Notes: a model not told the origin generated them from the letters alone. A DNA stretch of 32,000 bases from Promethearchaeum syntrophicum (GCF_008000775.2 NZ_CP042905.2:330001-362000), one strand, 5' to 3'; positions 6,266 to 10,997 are shown, counted from the first letter of the stretch. Program-made: numbers and translations.

Positions 6266-6484
6266 TTAAATAATATGCCGCATTATAAAATCTGCAGTTT
6301 TTTTACTGTTTTCATATGCTTTCTCAATATTTTCTCCAAATACCTTAGGCATCGTCTCTTCTACTACATAGTCTACAAAAGTTGATAAATTCTCAATTTT
6401 TTTCTTTTCTTTTTTAAAATCAGAGATCATTTCTGAAATGGAAAAATCAATTTCTTTTTCCTTACTTGGTTCTTTTTCATTCAT
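6266..6484 (-). CDS. Small hypothetical protein (72 aa, charged/helical), last gene of the activase operon
   Basis: The ATG lies 27 nt downstream of the activase stop on the same strand. The composition is Lys/Glu-rich and helical. I recognised no family. Confidence 0.5.
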   Translation of the reverse strand: MNEKEPSKEKEIDFSISEMISDFKKEKKKIENLSTFVDYVVEETMPKVFGENIEKAYENSKKTADFIMRHII

Positions 6485-6511
6485 GTTTAACGAATCTTCT
6501 CCTGTTAAAAT

Positions 6512-7630
6512 TTAATAAACAGCCCATTTACCGCATCGATCTCCCCATCTCGCGACAATTTCTCGTTTTTCCTTTCCATTTTCGTCAAATTCACCAGAAT
6601 TCATGTATACAGACATTACTTCACACCTGTTGGGGCATCCCTCACATCTAAATGCTTTCGTCTCAAATTCTAAATTCAATACATTGAAACCTCTGAATTT
6701 TGTCTGCCATGTTCCAGATATTTTTTCAGTTCGTTCTGATTCTTCACGAACTAAAATAGCTGCTCCTATTGCTCCCATAAGGATATTCTCTTCAGGAACT
6801 AGGATTTCTGTTCCTAAGGCTTCTTCAAATGCTTTTACTAAACCTTTATTATAACTAACTCCACCTTGGAAGACAATAGGGGGTTTTATCTCTTTGCCTT
6901 TTCCAACATTGTTCAAATAATTTCTCACTAATGCTTCACAAAGACCTTTAACAATTTCTTCTTTTGAATATCCCATTTGAGCTTTATGAATCATATCAGA
7001 TTCCGCAAAAACTCCACACCTACCAGCTATTGAAATATCTCCTTCCGCTTTTAATGCATATTCACCGAATTTTTCTATTGGAATACCTAATCGAGAAGCT
7101 TGATGGTCTAAGAAACTGCCTGTCCCAGCTGCGCAAACTGAATTCATTGCAAAATCCGCAACTATACCATTACGTAAAATTATTATTTTAGAATCCTGTC
7201 CTCCTATTTCTAAGATTGTGCTAACATCAGGATAATAGGTTAAAGAAGCAATCGCATGCGCAATAATTTCAGTTTTAGCAATGTCCCCTCCTACAACACT
7301 TTTAATTAAATATCTTGCAGATCCAGTCGTTCCGACCCCTTTAATATTAATTTTATCTATCATTCCGGAAGATTCTAGTTTTTCTTTTAGTTCTTTGATC
7401 CCTTTTTTGGATGATTCTATTGGAGAACCTTGATTTCTTAGCCAAAGTTTTTCAATTATTTTATTATTCTTATCTAATAAAACAATTTTTAAAGAAACAG
7501 ACCCAATATCAATACCCATAAACACCTCTAAGGTATTCTCTTTTATTTTTTCATCTGTACTTTTTAAAGATTTTTCTTGAATTTCGGAAACAATTGCAAC
7601 CGTTTTACTAGAATATTCTTGATCTGTCAT
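6512..7630 (-). CDS. BadF/BadG/BcrA/BcrD-type ATPase (HgdC-like [4Fe-4S] activase/electron-transfer ATPase)
   Basis: It has an actin-fold phosphate-1 motif MGIDIGSVSLKIVLLD and GVGTTGSAR. Both cluster-bridging Cys contexts typical of HgdC-type activators are present (NSVCAAGTGSFLD and AGRCGVFAESD). FQGGVSYN and GAIGAA also match. An extra C-terminal Cys-rich tail reads FRCEGCPNRCEV...WGDRCGKW. Confidence 0.85.
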   Translation of the reverse strand: MTDQEYSSKTVAIVSEIQEKSLKSTDEKIKENTLEVFMGIDIGSVSLKIVLLDKNNKIIEKLWLRNQGSPIESSKKGIKELKEKLESSGMIDKINIKGVGTTGSARYLIKSVVGGDIAKTEIIAHAIASLTYYPDVSTILEIGGQDSKIIILRNGIVADFAMNSVCAAGTGSFLDHQASRLGIPIEKFGEYALKAEGDISIAGRCGVFAESDMIHKAQMGYSKEEIVKGLCEALVRNYLNNVGKGKEIKPPIVFQGGVSYNKGLVKAFEEALGTEILVPEENILMGAIGAAILVREESERTEKISGTWQTKFRGFNVLNLEFETKAFRCEGCPNRCEVMSVYMNSGEFDENGKEKREIVARWGDRCGKWAVY

Positions 7631-7632
7631 TT

Positions 7633-8892: not shown

Positions 8893-8905
8893 TTTCTGTC
8901 TACCT

Positions 8906-9958
8906 TTATTGAAATTTTTCTCGACGGATCATATCGGTAAAAGATTCGATTCGAGTAATTAAACCCGACTCTCCTGAATGTTCATCTAATACAAGATCTA
9001 AATAAGGAATCTTCCTTTTTTTCATATCACGCATTATAATTTCCTGTATAAGACTATCAGGCCCACACGCAAATGATATTAAAAATATTATACCATCTAT
9101 TTTATTGCTACCATTACTTAAACAATATCGAGCAGTTTTTAATATTTCATCTTCGCTTTGCCAATATTGATGATATTGCTCATTTATTGTTATTTTCTCA
9201 CTAAATTCTGATTTTGGGAGATTTTCTATTGTTGTAATATTACAATCCATTGCTTGAAGCCGACTAATTAAATCCCTGTTTATATGGGTTTCATAGACAT
9301 TATATGCATGACCCAAAACTAAAATATTTACAGGAAATTTTCCTCGAATTGCTTCTGGAATAATTTGTTTTATAATTTTTTTTTTACGTTTGTGTTTGGG
9401 ATTACTATCAAGTTCATTGAGAAGTTCAATATAATCTCCTTCGCGAGCTTTATTTTGAAATTCTTCATATTTTCGAGTAGCATAATCCCATGCCTTTATC
9501 ATGGTTTCTCCATTATAACCCAAGATTTTTCCAAAATTTATTGCACTTTCGTGTTCACTATTTTTTTTCACATTGATTTCCAAAGTTATTATTGAAGTAT
9601 TTAAATTTAATCCATATTTCACTGCTTCTGGCAGAATTAGGAATTTTGGGCAAAAAAATTGTTCTTTATGACTTGAGACATAACGAGGAATAAAGATATA
9701 ATCCAAATCCGGAAATTCCGATAATAATTCTTTTACGTGCCCGAAATAAATTTTCATGGGAACACATAATTCAGAATTAGCTTCTTTTGTGCCCTCCTCA
9801 ACAATAACTGATGTAGTAGGACCTGATATTTTTACATCGCAATTTAAATAATCCAGAAAAGCTGTCCAAAATGGACCATATTTATAAAAATATAATGCTC
9901 TTGGTATTCCAATCTTTAATCGGTGCTTTTCTGTTTGACTCATTTTCGTGAACGACAC
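8906..9958 (-). CDS. DUF2229-like subunit (as in the C-terminal part of 'CoA-substrate-specific enzyme activase'/PlsA-type proteins)
   Basis: The N-terminal signature LKIGIPRALYFYKYGPFWTAFLDYLNCDVKISGPT matches my memory of the DUF2229 opening (IGIPRxLxxYExYPFWxTFF). ELCVPMKIYFGH and ISFACGPDS supply the Cys motifs. Confidence 0.65.
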   Translation of the reverse strand: MSFTKMSQTEKHRLKIGIPRALYFYKYGPFWTAFLDYLNCDVKISGPTTSVIVEEGTKEANSELCVPMKIYFGHVKELLSEFPDLDYIFIPRYVSSHKEQFFCPKFLILPEAVKYGLNLNTSIITLEINVKKNSEHESAINFGKILGYNGETMIKAWDYATRKYEEFQNKAREGDYIELLNELDSNPKHKRKKKIIKQIIPEAIRGKFPVNILVLGHAYNVYETHINRDLISRLQAMDCNITTIENLPKSEFSEKITINEQYHQYWQSEDEILKTARYCLSNGSNKIDGIIFLISFACGPDSLIQEIIMRDMKKRKIPYLDLVLDEHSGESGLITRIESFTDMIRREKFQ

Positions 9959-10070
9959 TTTAAATGTATCAATCTAATTAAAATTAACTCTTATTTTAAT
10001 ACATTTTTCCATTTATTTTGGTTCTAAAATTGCTGGATTTTGCAATTAAAAAAAAATGAGAAAAGTAATT

Positions 10071-10997
10071 TTATGAAATACTAAAATCTTTAGTGGAATC
10101 GGAAATTTTTTCTCCAATATCTTTCATTGGTGGTCTTGATGTTAAATTCTCTTCAATTTGAACTCGATCTTGATCAATAGAAATTGAAATTCCCTTACGA
10201 ATTATTCTCGAAACATTCATCTCTCCAGATTGAAGTATTAATACATCTTTTCGCATCTCATTTTTTATTTTTTGAACGTTTTCATAATTTAATTCCATTG
10301 AAGGGTCAATGTAAACCGGTTTTCCAATTACGACTTTAATTATACTTCCGTCACGTATCTTTATTTTATTTAAACTAGCATGTTTAGGAAAAACTTTGTA
10401 TGCTCCGAAAATTGAACATGGAACATATGGAACACCAACTTCTAAACAAAGTTTTGCTGCGCCACTATGAAATGGGGCTAATTCTCCATCTGGACTTCTT
10501 GTTCCTTCAGGAAACATACCAACACACCCTCCATTTTCAAGTACTGCTTTAACCTTTTCTAATGCATCAACATCTTGTTGTCCACGTTTTATTGGTATTG
10601 TTCCAAATGGTTTTATAATAGATTTAAAGATTGGGATATCGAAGTTTTCAATTTTAGATAACCATTGAACTTTTTTATTTACTGCACTTCCAACTAACCA
10701 AGGATCCAATTCACTTTGGTGATTGCTTATAACCATTGCTCCACCATGCTGAGGAAAATTTTCTTTTCCGACAATTGGATATTCCCACAATAATTTAAAA
10801 ATTCGGATAAAATTAGCTCGACCTACATTCCAATAGATAAAATCATCAAAAACTTCTAACACTCCCAGTTTTCCCATAAAAATTCTGCTTAAATCTGCAA
10901 TTTTATCAAAAGGATTATTTTCGAGCAGAATTCGTGCAAGTGATTTTTTTTTAACTTTGAGATTTTCCTTCTTCTCAATTATTTTATCATTTACCAT
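10071..10997 (-). CDS. plsC: 1-acyl-sn-glycerol-3-phosphate acyltransferase family (PlsC/LPLAT) protein
   Basis: Acyltransferase motif I is SNHQSELD (HX4D). Motif III is FPEGTRSPDG. Motif IV-like is VPYVPCSIFG. The length is 308 aa. Confidence 0.8.
   Translation of the reverse strand: MVNDKIIEKKENLKVKKKSLARILLENNPFDKIADLSRIFMGKLGVLEVFDDFIYWNVGRANFIRIFKLLWEYPIVGKENFPQHGGAMVISNHQSELDPWLVGSAVNKKVQWLSKIENFDIPIFKSIIKPFGTIPIKRGQQDVDALEKVKAVLENGGCVGMFPEGTRSPDGELAPFHSGAAKLCLEVGVPYVPCSIFGAYKVFPKHASLNKIKIRDGSIIKVVIGKPVYIDPSMELNYENVQKIKNEMRKDVLILQSGEMNVSRIIRKGISISIDQDRVQIEENLTSRPPMKDIGEKISDSTKDFSIS

Follow-up and report, generated by a model that had tools for sequence, protein, structure and literature searches.

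The window, by which we mean the whole stretch of 32,000 nucleotides that was analysed, carries at 6266-10997 five minus-strand ORFs, which encode a PlsC-family acyltransferase (AT), two catalytic subunits (DH and R), an activating ATPase (B) and a small protein (Table 1). We propose that these form an acyltransferase-coupled, ATP-dependent Fe-S radical reductase of the DUF2229 superfamily which would convert ester lipids to ether lipids, a tentative reading to which we give slightly less than an even chance. The three tightly packed genes, the 72-aa ORF and the upstream acyltransferase described in the sequence-only reading were all reproduced, as were their domains and each of the quoted motifs, the intergenic gaps from the acyltransferase to the small ORF being 112, 13, 2 and 27 nt. 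The arrangement is not due to chance, since the same layout recurs in dozens of divergent genomes. The host, perceived at first only as archaeal-looking, belongs to the Lokiarchaeia (Asgard), genus Promethearchaeum, with 89-90% identity to Promethearchaeum sp. MAGs. An Asgard-type Gtr1/RagA GTPase gene adjoins the operon.

Table 1. Genes of the operon and the two genes upstream of it, in window coordinates.
Feature	Position	Strand	Remarks
PlsC-family (LPLAT) acyltransferase (AT), 308 aa	10071..10997	-	PF01553, HX4D + block III
DH subunit, 350 aa (345 aa if ATG 9943)	8906..9958	-	DUF2229 + C-terminal HGD-D-like region
R subunit, 419 aa	7633..8892	-	DH paralogue; counterpart of module 2 / PlsR
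B subunit, 372 aa	6512..7630	-	single HgdC-type activating ATPase
Small 72-aa protein	6266..6484	-	kept 3' of ATPase gene in Lokiarchaeial clade
PadR-family regulator	11125-11751	-	Pfam; directly upstream of AT gene
2TM-domain protein	11761-12408	-	Pfam; upstream of PadR gene

The DH subunit, in which the elements KIGIPRALYFYKYGPFWTAFL, ELCVPMK and SFACGPDS are present, is a clear DUF2229 protein (PF09989, E=2.3e-44, 152 bits), while its similarity to HGD-D (PF06050) is restricted to the last 60 residues and scores 24.2 bits, below the Pfam cut-off of 28.4. Translation may start at ATG 9943 instead (345 aa), which is the start seen in the close homologues P0001 and P0003. R carries EFVCLPFK, DCGPCRLGFY and PFTCMPEV and presents a weak partial DUF2229 match and no other Pfam domain, its C-terminus extending about 55 aa past the bacterial R proteins of about 365 aa. 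Three cysteines are invariant in each of the two subunits (C65, C103 and C298 in DH; C52, C83 and C311 in R) and are kept in all split and fused groups; in DH, another 30 or so positions are at least 90% conserved across split and fused forms. None of the subunits has a predicted membrane-spanning segment, a point against the ester-to-ether reading.

The ATPase matches BcrAD_BadFG (PF01869, E=1.5e-45) and TIGR00241 (E=2.8e-57) and contains NSVCAAGTGSFLD, AGRCGVFAESD and CEGCPNRC...RCGKW. In agreement with the initial proposal, its C166 and C205 occupy the positions of C127 and C166 in the HgdC activator 1hux, corresponding to the cysteine contexts that bridge the cluster in this type of activator, and an additional four-cysteine tail is found (C329, C332, C336 and C366). 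In split ATPases these four cysteines never vary; six out of seven fused PlsA-type proteins have them in the second ATPase domain (B2), and the first domain lacks them. The solved activators of the HAD, BCR and DCCP systems are too short to include such a tail: those matching have 243-276 aa and the three aligned ones stop at query residue ~297-303, so that the tail of the window ATPase falls outside their coverage. The small protein matched no Pfam or NCBIfam family; it is 40-43% identical to the ORFs at the same position in loci L001 and L009, with profile matches in L015-L020 and weak same-position matches in L023, L034 and L079.

Given that the ATPase is homologous to these activators and has the same bridging cysteines, ATP-coupled low-potential electron transfer is expected, and the enzymes which share this machinery have to be weighed. 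Predicted structures of DH (pLDDT 80.5) and R (pLDDT 80.3) adopt the fold of HadC/DCCP/BCR and DCCP/HadBC/BCR catalytic subunits, respectively. The alternative offered by the sequence-only reading was an enzyme of amino-acid fermentation resembling 2-hydroxyacyl-CoA dehydratase, which would here be of the HgdAB/HadBC type and paired with an activator. The HadBC fold of both models, the 119-133 bits scored by the ATPase against HadI/HgdC activators and MbdQ, and the fact that Lokiarchaeia ferment amino acids are compatible with it. However, similarity is limited to the fold common to HadBC/HgdAB, BCR and DCCP catalytic subunits (TM 0.45-0.53, 10-15% identity), beyond which DH and R do not match bona fide CoA-ester dehydratases or reductases: matches of DH to PDB sequences are confined to its C-terminal 60 residues (E=0.01-0.06), R has none, and DH scores 15.8 bits against the HadC model (cut-off 700) and 15.6 against BcrC (cut-off 421). 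Neither subunit has a full-length HGD-D or equivalog match, the HGD-D score lying under threshold where DUF2229 is unequivocal. The context is also not that of such a pathway, as CoA-transferase, 2-hydroxyacid dehydrogenase and Etf/acyl-CoA dehydrogenase genes are missing from the 32-kb window, and CoA-ester pathway genes from the commonest flanking families of 80 Asgard and 80 bacterial loci, the conserved neighbour being instead an acyltransferase. We thus regard a fermentative dehydratase as very improbable.

A DCCP-like low-potential reductase of small molecules, or a dearomatising enzyme resembling benzoyl-CoA reductase, is improbable too, if a shade less so. DCCP (7yyl, 6eno) and Bzd/Mbd subunits rank at the top by fold, the DCCP reductase 7yyl_E also matches the ATPase, and the six invariant cysteines of each DH/R pair might in principle suffice for a larger cluster; yet three of these sit in one subunit and three in the other, and the fold similarity to DCCP is no better than that to HadC or BCR subunits. 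The sequence match of the catalytic subunit to 7yyl_C/6eno is marginal (E=0.01 over 60 residues), which does not place it in the DCCP family. Membership of class I benzoyl-CoA reductases (BcrABCD/BzdNOPQ) is likewise discarded, as these need two distinct ATPase subunits and the window has one, which scores 73-100 bits against BcrA/BcrD/BzdQ models with cut-offs of 313-578. Neither variant explains the acyltransferase linkage.

A closer correspondence is found with the PlsA/PlsR/Ger enzymes, for which conversion of an sn-1 ester to an ether has been demonstrated experimentally (Ger and PlsA; PMC13159169, PMC12838417). These comprise C. perfringens CPE1194/1195, the single-gene PlsA of Enterococcus, Listeria and Bifidobacterium, and the Ger proteins of T. 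maritima (Tmari_0479) and D. alkenivorans (SHJ90043); for the genes of Listeria and Coriobacteriales, orthology to PlsA/PlsR is accepted (PMC9702350). The domain set is the same (BcrAD_BadFG ATPase, DUF2229 and an HGD-D-like region), with DUF2229 being weak in R and HGD-D weak, and the hosts are anaerobic in both cases. Using subunit profiles, DH corresponds to the full length of module 1, R to module 2 and B best to the B2 domain. Indeed, profiles of the split subunits trace the order B, B, DH, R along the fusions of Listeria, Collinsella, Haliovirga and Acetoanaerobium as well as along the PlsA+PlsR-like pair of Fusobacterium, and the Paraclostridium fusion, among other fused PlsA-type proteins, is also collinear. 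Together with the 3+3 invariant cysteines and the four-cysteine tail after a B2-type ATPase, this sustains the proposed relationship to a PlsA/PlsR/Ger module.

Assignment to the fused group itself did not hold. Unlike the fused enzymes, ordered B-B-DH-R, the window has three polypeptides ordered DH-R-B, an extra 72-aa protein and a single ATPase domain in a separate protein in place of the two tandem domains of the BB-D core, which every confirmed alkyl-ether producer is reported to share (PMC13159169); the single ATPase resembles B2 and might nevertheless homodimerise. DH and R are 19-23% identical to PlsA-type modules (~22% to PlsA module 1). In a neighbour-joining tree of 112 modules (200 bootstraps), which leaves out the sequences of C. 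perfringens PlsA/PlsR, E. faecalis, T. maritima Ger and D. alkenivorans Ger, the window subunits branch outside the clade of experimentally supported enzymes: the fused PlsA-type clade (78% bootstrap) excludes the window DH, which falls in an Asgard AT-linked clade (83%). With the R paralogues as root, the split-type diversity encloses the fused PlsA clade, from which we conclude that split and fused types are one family. The splitting, initially taken as unusual, is in fact common, as stand-alone subunits make up the majority of the nearest 150 cluster representatives.

The nearest relatives outside Asgard are uncharacterised clostridial DH-R-B operons, at 34% identity versus 22% to PlsA module 1, such as those of Monoglobus pectinilyticus (WP_102365312-WP_102365310), Petroclostridium and Carboxydothermus pertinax, annotated as 'acyl-CoA dehydratase activase-related protein / 2-hydroxyacyl-CoA dehydratase / acyl-CoA dehydratase activase'. 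These have similar sizes, 30-53% identity per subunit, and the same cysteines and ATPase tail, but differ in their bacterial and largely spore-forming hosts, in lacking the 72-aa gene (a TSCPD protein occupies that position in Monoglobus) and in having no AT or HAD neighbour, their flanks being heterogeneous, consisting mostly of sporulation genes and showing no linkage to lipid genes.

A distinct scenario results from the analysis of the Asgard loci. Among the 80 genome matches kept, a sample in which the cultured Promethearchaeum syntrophicum strain used for lipid analysis is not included, 69 have an orthologous PlsC-family AT directly upstream of DH at a distance of no more than 300 nt (median gap 21 nt), including the cultured Lokiarchaeum ossiferum (L016), and in AT-linked loci DH identity goes down to 42%. 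The PlsC-family gene is therefore a conserved neighbour in relatives, a linkage that is a new result of this analysis. With this, and with the lack of a match to CoA-ester enzymes beyond their fold, the sequence-only proposal survived both of the computational checks that it had set for itself. Only two of 80 bacterial-type loci have it (L143 and L161), and since both cluster with the Asgard clade, AT linkage tracks phylogeny. The window AT is a PF01553 protein (E=1.3e-28) with the HX4D motif (H93-QSEL-D98, in NHQSELD) and block III (FPEGTR at 162, in FPEGTRS) of PlsC/LPLAT enzymes, and its best solved relative is the T. maritima PlsC 5kym (E=1e-15); 'PlsC family' is a safer name than 'PlsC', as the score against the NCBI AGPAT-domain model TIGR00530 (94.8 bits) is just under the 102.95 cut-off. 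In Asgard loci the AT is usually a tandem double domain with catalytic motifs intact in both halves, and the 308-aa protein agrees in type with domain 1. In many Asgard lineages, but not in the sub-clade of the window, a HAD hydrolase is a frequent conserved neighbour, and some loci have acyl-CoA-synthetase-like (AMP-binding) or thioesterase genes near the operon.

Asgard archaea also possess B-B-DH fusions of ~982 aa, which are accompanied by an R-type protein of 469 aa, as in the Thorarchaeota loci L005 and L044, belonging to the same superfamily and found in the same phylum. They differ from the window operon in their two-gene PlsA/PlsR-like layout, in having two ATPase domains and in clustering with bacterial PlsA module 1 (78% bootstrap). 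In eight loci an AT-DH pair lies 2-3 kb from such a BB-DH and R' pair clustering with bacterial PlsA. These fusions are probably the 'Ger homologs' of Asgard archaea reported in 2022. That such homologues exist in Asgard archaea and bear on the lipid divide has been published before (PMC13159169), so this aspect of the sequence-only reading is not new.

The serious alternative to ether formation is that the same ATP-driven Fe-S machinery carries out a different reaction, for example reducing or dehydrating some other acyl ester or thioester, or remodelling lipids without ether formation, with the ATs supplying or consuming the substrate and the split lineage being a functionally distinct sister of PlsA/Ger. 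The position of the split-type proteins outside the fused clade, at ~22% identity, would fit this, as would the flanks of the bacterial split operons and the existence within the family of paralogues fused to FAD_binding_4, which point to diversified chemistry; moreover, lipid analyses of cultured Promethearchaeum syntrophicum reported isoprenoid chains only (PMC11316595). The method used on this organism may have missed other lipids. Against a different reaction stand the retention of all candidate ligand cysteines and of the PlsA-specific ATPase tail, the single family that results from R-rooting, the loci in which AT-DH lies beside PlsA/PlsR-like pairs, and the tight, phylum-wide linkage to PlsC-family ATs, which among solved proteins are closest to a lysophosphatidate acyltransferase. 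We consider this alternative somewhat unlikely.

In the ester-to-ether reading, the PlsC-family acyltransferase would form the O-acyl ester of a glycerol-based lipid. The ATPase would act as a dimer, with C166/C205 binding a [4Fe-4S] cluster between its two halves, and take an electron from a low-potential donor, ATP hydrolysis driving it into a DH/R heterodimer in which each subunit would hold an Fe-S cluster on its three invariant cysteines. Reduction of the ester carbonyl would proceed through a ketyl radical and lead, after dehydration, to an alk-1-enyl ether, as in PlsA, or, on further reduction, to an alkyl ether, as in Ger. The ether product demonstrated for PlsA and Ger is, for the window, one that we infer; the conservation of the AT-reductase pairing across Asgard archaea, where the reductase adjoins acyltransferases of glycerolipid type, makes ether-lipid synthesis from esters a testable, if unproven, function. 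It is possible, albeit rather doubtful, that an Asgard-specific, phylum-wide cluster of tandem PlsC-type ATs and split DH-R-B produces glycerol ethers by acylation followed by ester reduction, which would represent a second archaeal route to ether lipids, independent of prenyl transfer.

The PadR and 2TM genes preceding the operon have a possible regulatory or accessory role in this sub-clade, as suggested by association: both families occur among the upstream neighbours of the closest loci, and the order 2TM-PadR-AT is also present in locus L001.

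The operon is made up of five co-directional open reading frames, of which the coordinates and sizes given in the sequence-only reading agree with the ORF listing, as do the intergenic gaps of 112, 13, 2 and 27 nt; likewise, all the motifs cited there are found in the translated proteins. The table lists the acyltransferase gene (AT), the gene for a DUF2229 and HGD-D-like protein (DH), its partner R, the ATPase gene B and the terminal small ORF (s72), for which the profile searches applied to the other four proteins yielded no family match. The DH frame may instead start at the ATG at position 9943, resulting in a 345-aa protein as in its closest homologues. 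The window has a GC content of ∼30%, its DH is 89–90% identical to those of two Promethearchaeum sp. MAGs and a Gtr1/RagA-type GTPase gene adjoins the operon; the host is a Lokiarchaeial Asgard archaeon. A search for tRNA and Rfam RNAs in the window returned none, and scanning for sigma-70 promoters, which are not applicable to archaea, was uninformative (32 sites, 32.6 expected).

Genes of the operon, with window positions and the basis of each assignment
Gene	Product length (aa)	Position	Strand	Basis
AT, acyltransferase	308	10071-10997	minus	PF01553 profile match
DH	350	8906-9958	minus	DUF2229 (E=2e-44) and sub-threshold C-terminal HGD-D match
R	419	7633-8892	minus	weak, partial DUF2229 match only
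B, ATPase	372	6512-7630	minus	BcrAD_BadFG (E=1.5e-45); TIGR00241 'acyl-CoA dehydratase activase' (E=2.8e-57)
s72	72	6266-6484	minus	ORF call

We have compared the operon with fused proteins of the plasmalogen synthase (PlsA/PlsR) and glycerol ester reductase (Ger) type, of which the sequence-only reading had considered it a split version. The comparators are fused homologues from bacterial chromosome or chromid records, used in place of the experimentally tested enzymes' own sequences: Listeria monocytogenes (1475 aa), Collinsella aerofaciens (1479 aa), Paraclostridium (1282 aa), Haliovirga (1449 aa), Acetoanaerobium (1446 aa), Brevibacillus (1168 aa) and two Fusobacterium genes paired in the manner of PlsA/PlsR (975 + 404 aa). 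Those of Listeria and the Coriobacteriales are recognised as PlsA/PlsR orthologues, and plasmalogens are produced by Listeria in anaerobic growth (PMC9702350). BLAST and profiles made from the split subunits evidence a strict collinearity, the fused proteins being arranged as B-B-DH-R, so that the window DH corresponds to module 1, R to module 2 or PlsR, and B to the second ATPase domain. Cysteines C65, C103 and C298 of DH and C52, C83 and C311 of R are invariant in all groups examined, including the fused modules, and about 30 further DH residues are at least 90% conserved in the same alignment comparison. In B, C166 and C205 align onto C127 and C166 of a solved HgdC activator, the ligands that bridge the cluster. 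The ATPase also has a Cys-rich tail (C329, C332, C336, C366), invariant among the split ATPases sampled and present after the second ATPase domain in six of the seven fused proteins, the first domain having none. The matching solved activators, the ATPase partners of 2-hydroxyacyl-CoA dehydratase, benzoyl-CoA reductase and the double-cubane cluster protein (DCCP), have 243–276 aa, and the three that were aligned stop near B residue 300. Being common to split ATPases and fused second domains and lying beyond the ends of the solved activators, the tail is therefore a derived character linking B with the PlsA family.

AlphaFold modelled both DH and R with confidence (pLDDT 80), and the two models have the fold of the catalytic subunits of HadBC, DCCP and the Bzd/Mbd benzoyl-CoA reductases, being equidistant from the three (TM 0.45–0.53, 10–15% identity); no PlsA-type structure is present in the PDB. 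A shared fold could also be expected of a fermentative 2-hydroxyacyl-CoA dehydratase, the alternative raised in the sequence-only reading as an enzyme of amino-acid fermentation, yet this assignment is poorly supported: the family models score far below cut-off, PDB sequence matches span only 60 residues, and the pathway genes are absent both from the window and from the most frequent flanking families. Assignment as a benzoyl-CoA reductase or as a DCCP is unlikely as well, as each fails similar tests.

An exhaustive DH search returned 2514 cluster representatives, and among the best 150 of these nearly all are stand-alone proteins of 300–380 aa, plus a dozen DH-R fusions of ∼700 aa and no fusion of ∼1400 aa. 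The closest named non-Asgard relatives are clostridial (Petroclostridium, Carboxydothermus pertinax and Monoglobus). The Monoglobus operon has the DH-R-B order of the window, followed by a small gene; however, this encodes an 81-aa TSCPD-domain protein (TIGR03905, L010:9241-9486), whereas the 72-aa protein found after the ATPase gene in the Lokiarchaeial clade is unrelated. We placed 112 modules of the DH and R types in a Kimura-corrected neighbour-joining tree (332 alignment columns, 200 bootstraps). One clade, with 78% bootstrap, unites the B-B-DH fusions of Asgard genomes with module 1 of bacterial PlsA and leaves out all split proteins, and the acyltransferase-linked Asgard DH proteins form a separate clade (83%). 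The window DH falls within the latter; it shares 48% identity with the Asgard clade, 34% with clostridial DH and 22% with module 1 of PlsA. Thus, of the earlier proposal, the likeness to a split PlsA/PlsR/Ger module is borne out by collinearity, invariant cysteines and the ATPase tail, whereas a branching with the fused PlsA-type proteins is not. When the tree is rooted with the R paralogues, the fused clade lies on a long branch nested inside the bacterial split-type diversity, and the Asgard clade is sister to the whole assemblage of fused and bacterial split forms. Since the fused clade is nested in this way, split and fused forms are, on this tree, one family in which the fused enzymes look derived. 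The window operon is best described as a relative, and no more than a candidate orthologue, of the validated PlsA and Ger enzymes, placed outside the fused PlsA-type clade.

We have analyzed the gene neighbourhood in 80 genomes from a genome scan, using local profiles to find AT, DH, R and B. The sample comprises Lokiarchaeia (including the complete genome of the cultured Lokiarchaeum ossiferum), Harpocratesius, Hermod-, Hod-, Thor- and Odinarchaeota; the cultured Promethearchaeum syntrophicum strain is not among the 80 matches. In 69 of the 80 loci, DH is preceded on its own strand by a PF01553 acyltransferase gene, at a distance of at most 300 nt (median gap 21 nt); a PlsC-family gene is thus a conserved neighbour in relatives, a check that the sequence-only reading had called for. 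The acyltransferase gene is within 8 kb in 7 further loci, and the profile search found none in 4. This arrangement is kept across DH identities as low as 42%, the flanking genes being otherwise unconserved. The commonest form is a tandem double acyltransferase of ∼555 aa, in which HX4D and block III are kept in both domains in about 60 of 63 cases; in the sub-clade of the window the acyltransferase genes are separate, and the window itself has one, of the domain-1 type.

A distinct picture resulted from 80 bacterial-type split loci from metagenomes. DH-R-B is kept in nearly all complete loci, and an acyltransferase is nearby in only two (L143 and L161), both of which group with the Asgard clade in the tree. 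The bacterial flanks are heterogeneous, with sporulation genes commonest, and offer no metabolic clue; CoA-transferase, hydroxyacid dehydrogenase and Etf are not among their most frequent families.

These results are best accounted for by a radical Fe-S reductase of the PlsA superfamily that depends on ATP, is coupled to an acyltransferase and would act on an O-acyl ester. Conversion of a glycerolipid ester into an ether is the most likely chemistry because it is the sole demonstrated activity of the superfamily (PMC13159169, PMC12838417) and because of the acyltransferase linkage; nevertheless, we advance it tentatively, with slightly less than even confidence. Against it stand the position of the operon outside the validated clade, its uncharacterised nearest relatives, and its one ATPase domain as compared to the BB core reported in all confirmed ether producers. 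Also against it, only isoprenoid chains were reported for cultured Promethearchaeum syntrophicum (PMC11316595), although the method may have missed other lipids, and according to a 2026 review the lipids of Asgard archaea are yet to be determined.

Ger homologues have already been reported in Loki- and Heimdallarchaeota, at a threshold of at least 30% query coverage (PMC13159169); these are more likely the ∼982-aa B-B-DH fusions of Thor-type loci than the split operon. PlsC/PlsY homologues scattered in Asgard genomes, and their possible bearing with Ger homologues on the lipid divide, have also been published. Our literature search, in which DUF2229 occurred in only four papers, gave no prior description of the split-type lineage, of the near-universal coupling of split reductase and tandem acyltransferase in Asgard archaea, of its lineage-specificity or of the operon in a cultured species. 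New here are a distinct split reductase physically coupled to catalytically intact acyltransferase domains in most Asgard lineages sampled, the specificity of this coupling to the Asgard-type split lineage, and the operon in cultured Lokiarchaeum ossiferum (L016; CP104013, roughly 3.42–3.43 Mb). This bears on the long-standing question of how eukaryotes with bacterial-type lipids arose from a host whose lipids were archaeal (isoprenoid ethers on glycerol-1-phosphate), and narrows what was a vague hint from genomes to a defined unit of four or five genes open to expression or lipidome work. Even without an ether-lipid product, an ATP-dependent radical enzyme that is coupled to an acyltransferase and conserved in Asgard archaea would be new to biochemistry, and would also offer a way into the large clostridial split family, which is uncharacterised.

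Further features were noted around the Asgard clusters. In 12 loci a third, ∼230-aa acyltransferase-like gene follows the ATPase (e.g. L023:11789-12562, L026:6486-7181, L032:9720-10430); it lacks HX4D and block III, so its product may be catalytically inactive. HAD-IA hydrolases account for 35 of 141 flanking proteins scanned and, in the loci inspected, immediately precede the acyltransferase gene, being phosphoglycolate phosphatase/PpaX-like (e.g. L031:1388-2173, L023:5420-6208); the window HAD hydrolase at 3795-4526 is probably not this neighbour, with 24% identity and another best subfamily. AMP-binding or thioesterase genes are nearby in some loci. In eight loci of Thor-type and other Asgard genomes, the AT-DH pair, which has neither R nor B of the split type close to it, lies 2–3 kb upstream of a PlsA/PlsR-like pair composed of a B-B-DH fusion (∼982 aa) and a 469-aa protein with R-type cysteines (L005:11538-15907 (= L044), L025, L033, L037, L046, L075, L082, L093). 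Other Asgard paralogues have a ∼455-aa FAD_binding_4 domain (PF01565) N-terminal to the DH module (L091:6636-9047, L068:2353-4794, L070:9805-12225), and the genes for the ATPase and then R come next, giving the order DH-B-R. PF01565 is a broad flavoenzyme family with alkyl-DHAP synthase among its members; none of the actual matches is to that enzyme. The metagenomic locus L143 (2433-11159, 29% GC) encodes, co-directionally, a triple-domain acyltransferase (876 aa), a LarA-like protein, a HAD hydrolase (6499-7971, between acyltransferase and DH), DH, R and B, and further downstream a zinc-ribbon protein, followed by NifX-like and Mrp/NUBPL-type Fe-S proteins; the Loki locus L003 likewise has a Lar_N gene at its edge (from 16947).

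Elsewhere in the window, two large adjoining ORFs (45-3704; 638 and 580 aa) have no Pfam match, and in L001, too, large unannotated ORFs are located past the operon, on the other strand. A 62-aa ORF (12413-12601) with seven cysteines and a CxxC near the N-terminus is found just upstream of 2TM/PadR genes. The region 13652-21792 is a sugar-utilisation-like cluster (two MFS transporters, a DUF2961 protein, a short-chain dehydrogenase and a GH2 beta-galactosidase of 1060 aa), and in L001 the operon likewise has a GH2 gene upstream; 22222-25568 encodes a ZnuABC-type metal ABC transporter (ATPase, permease and ZnuA-like binding protein) with a DtxR-type repressor. A 1436-aa protein (26481-30791), in which DUF4011 is joined to superfamily-1 helicase domains (AAA_11/AAA_12) and, at the C-terminus, a REase_MTES_1575 nuclease domain, may have a role in defence or repair. 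Next to the downstream end of the operon, 5170-6111 encodes a 313-aa Gtr1/RagA-family small GTPase (TTG start) of the Asgard 'eukaryotic signature' type, and an ORF of the same size follows the operon in the close relative L015.
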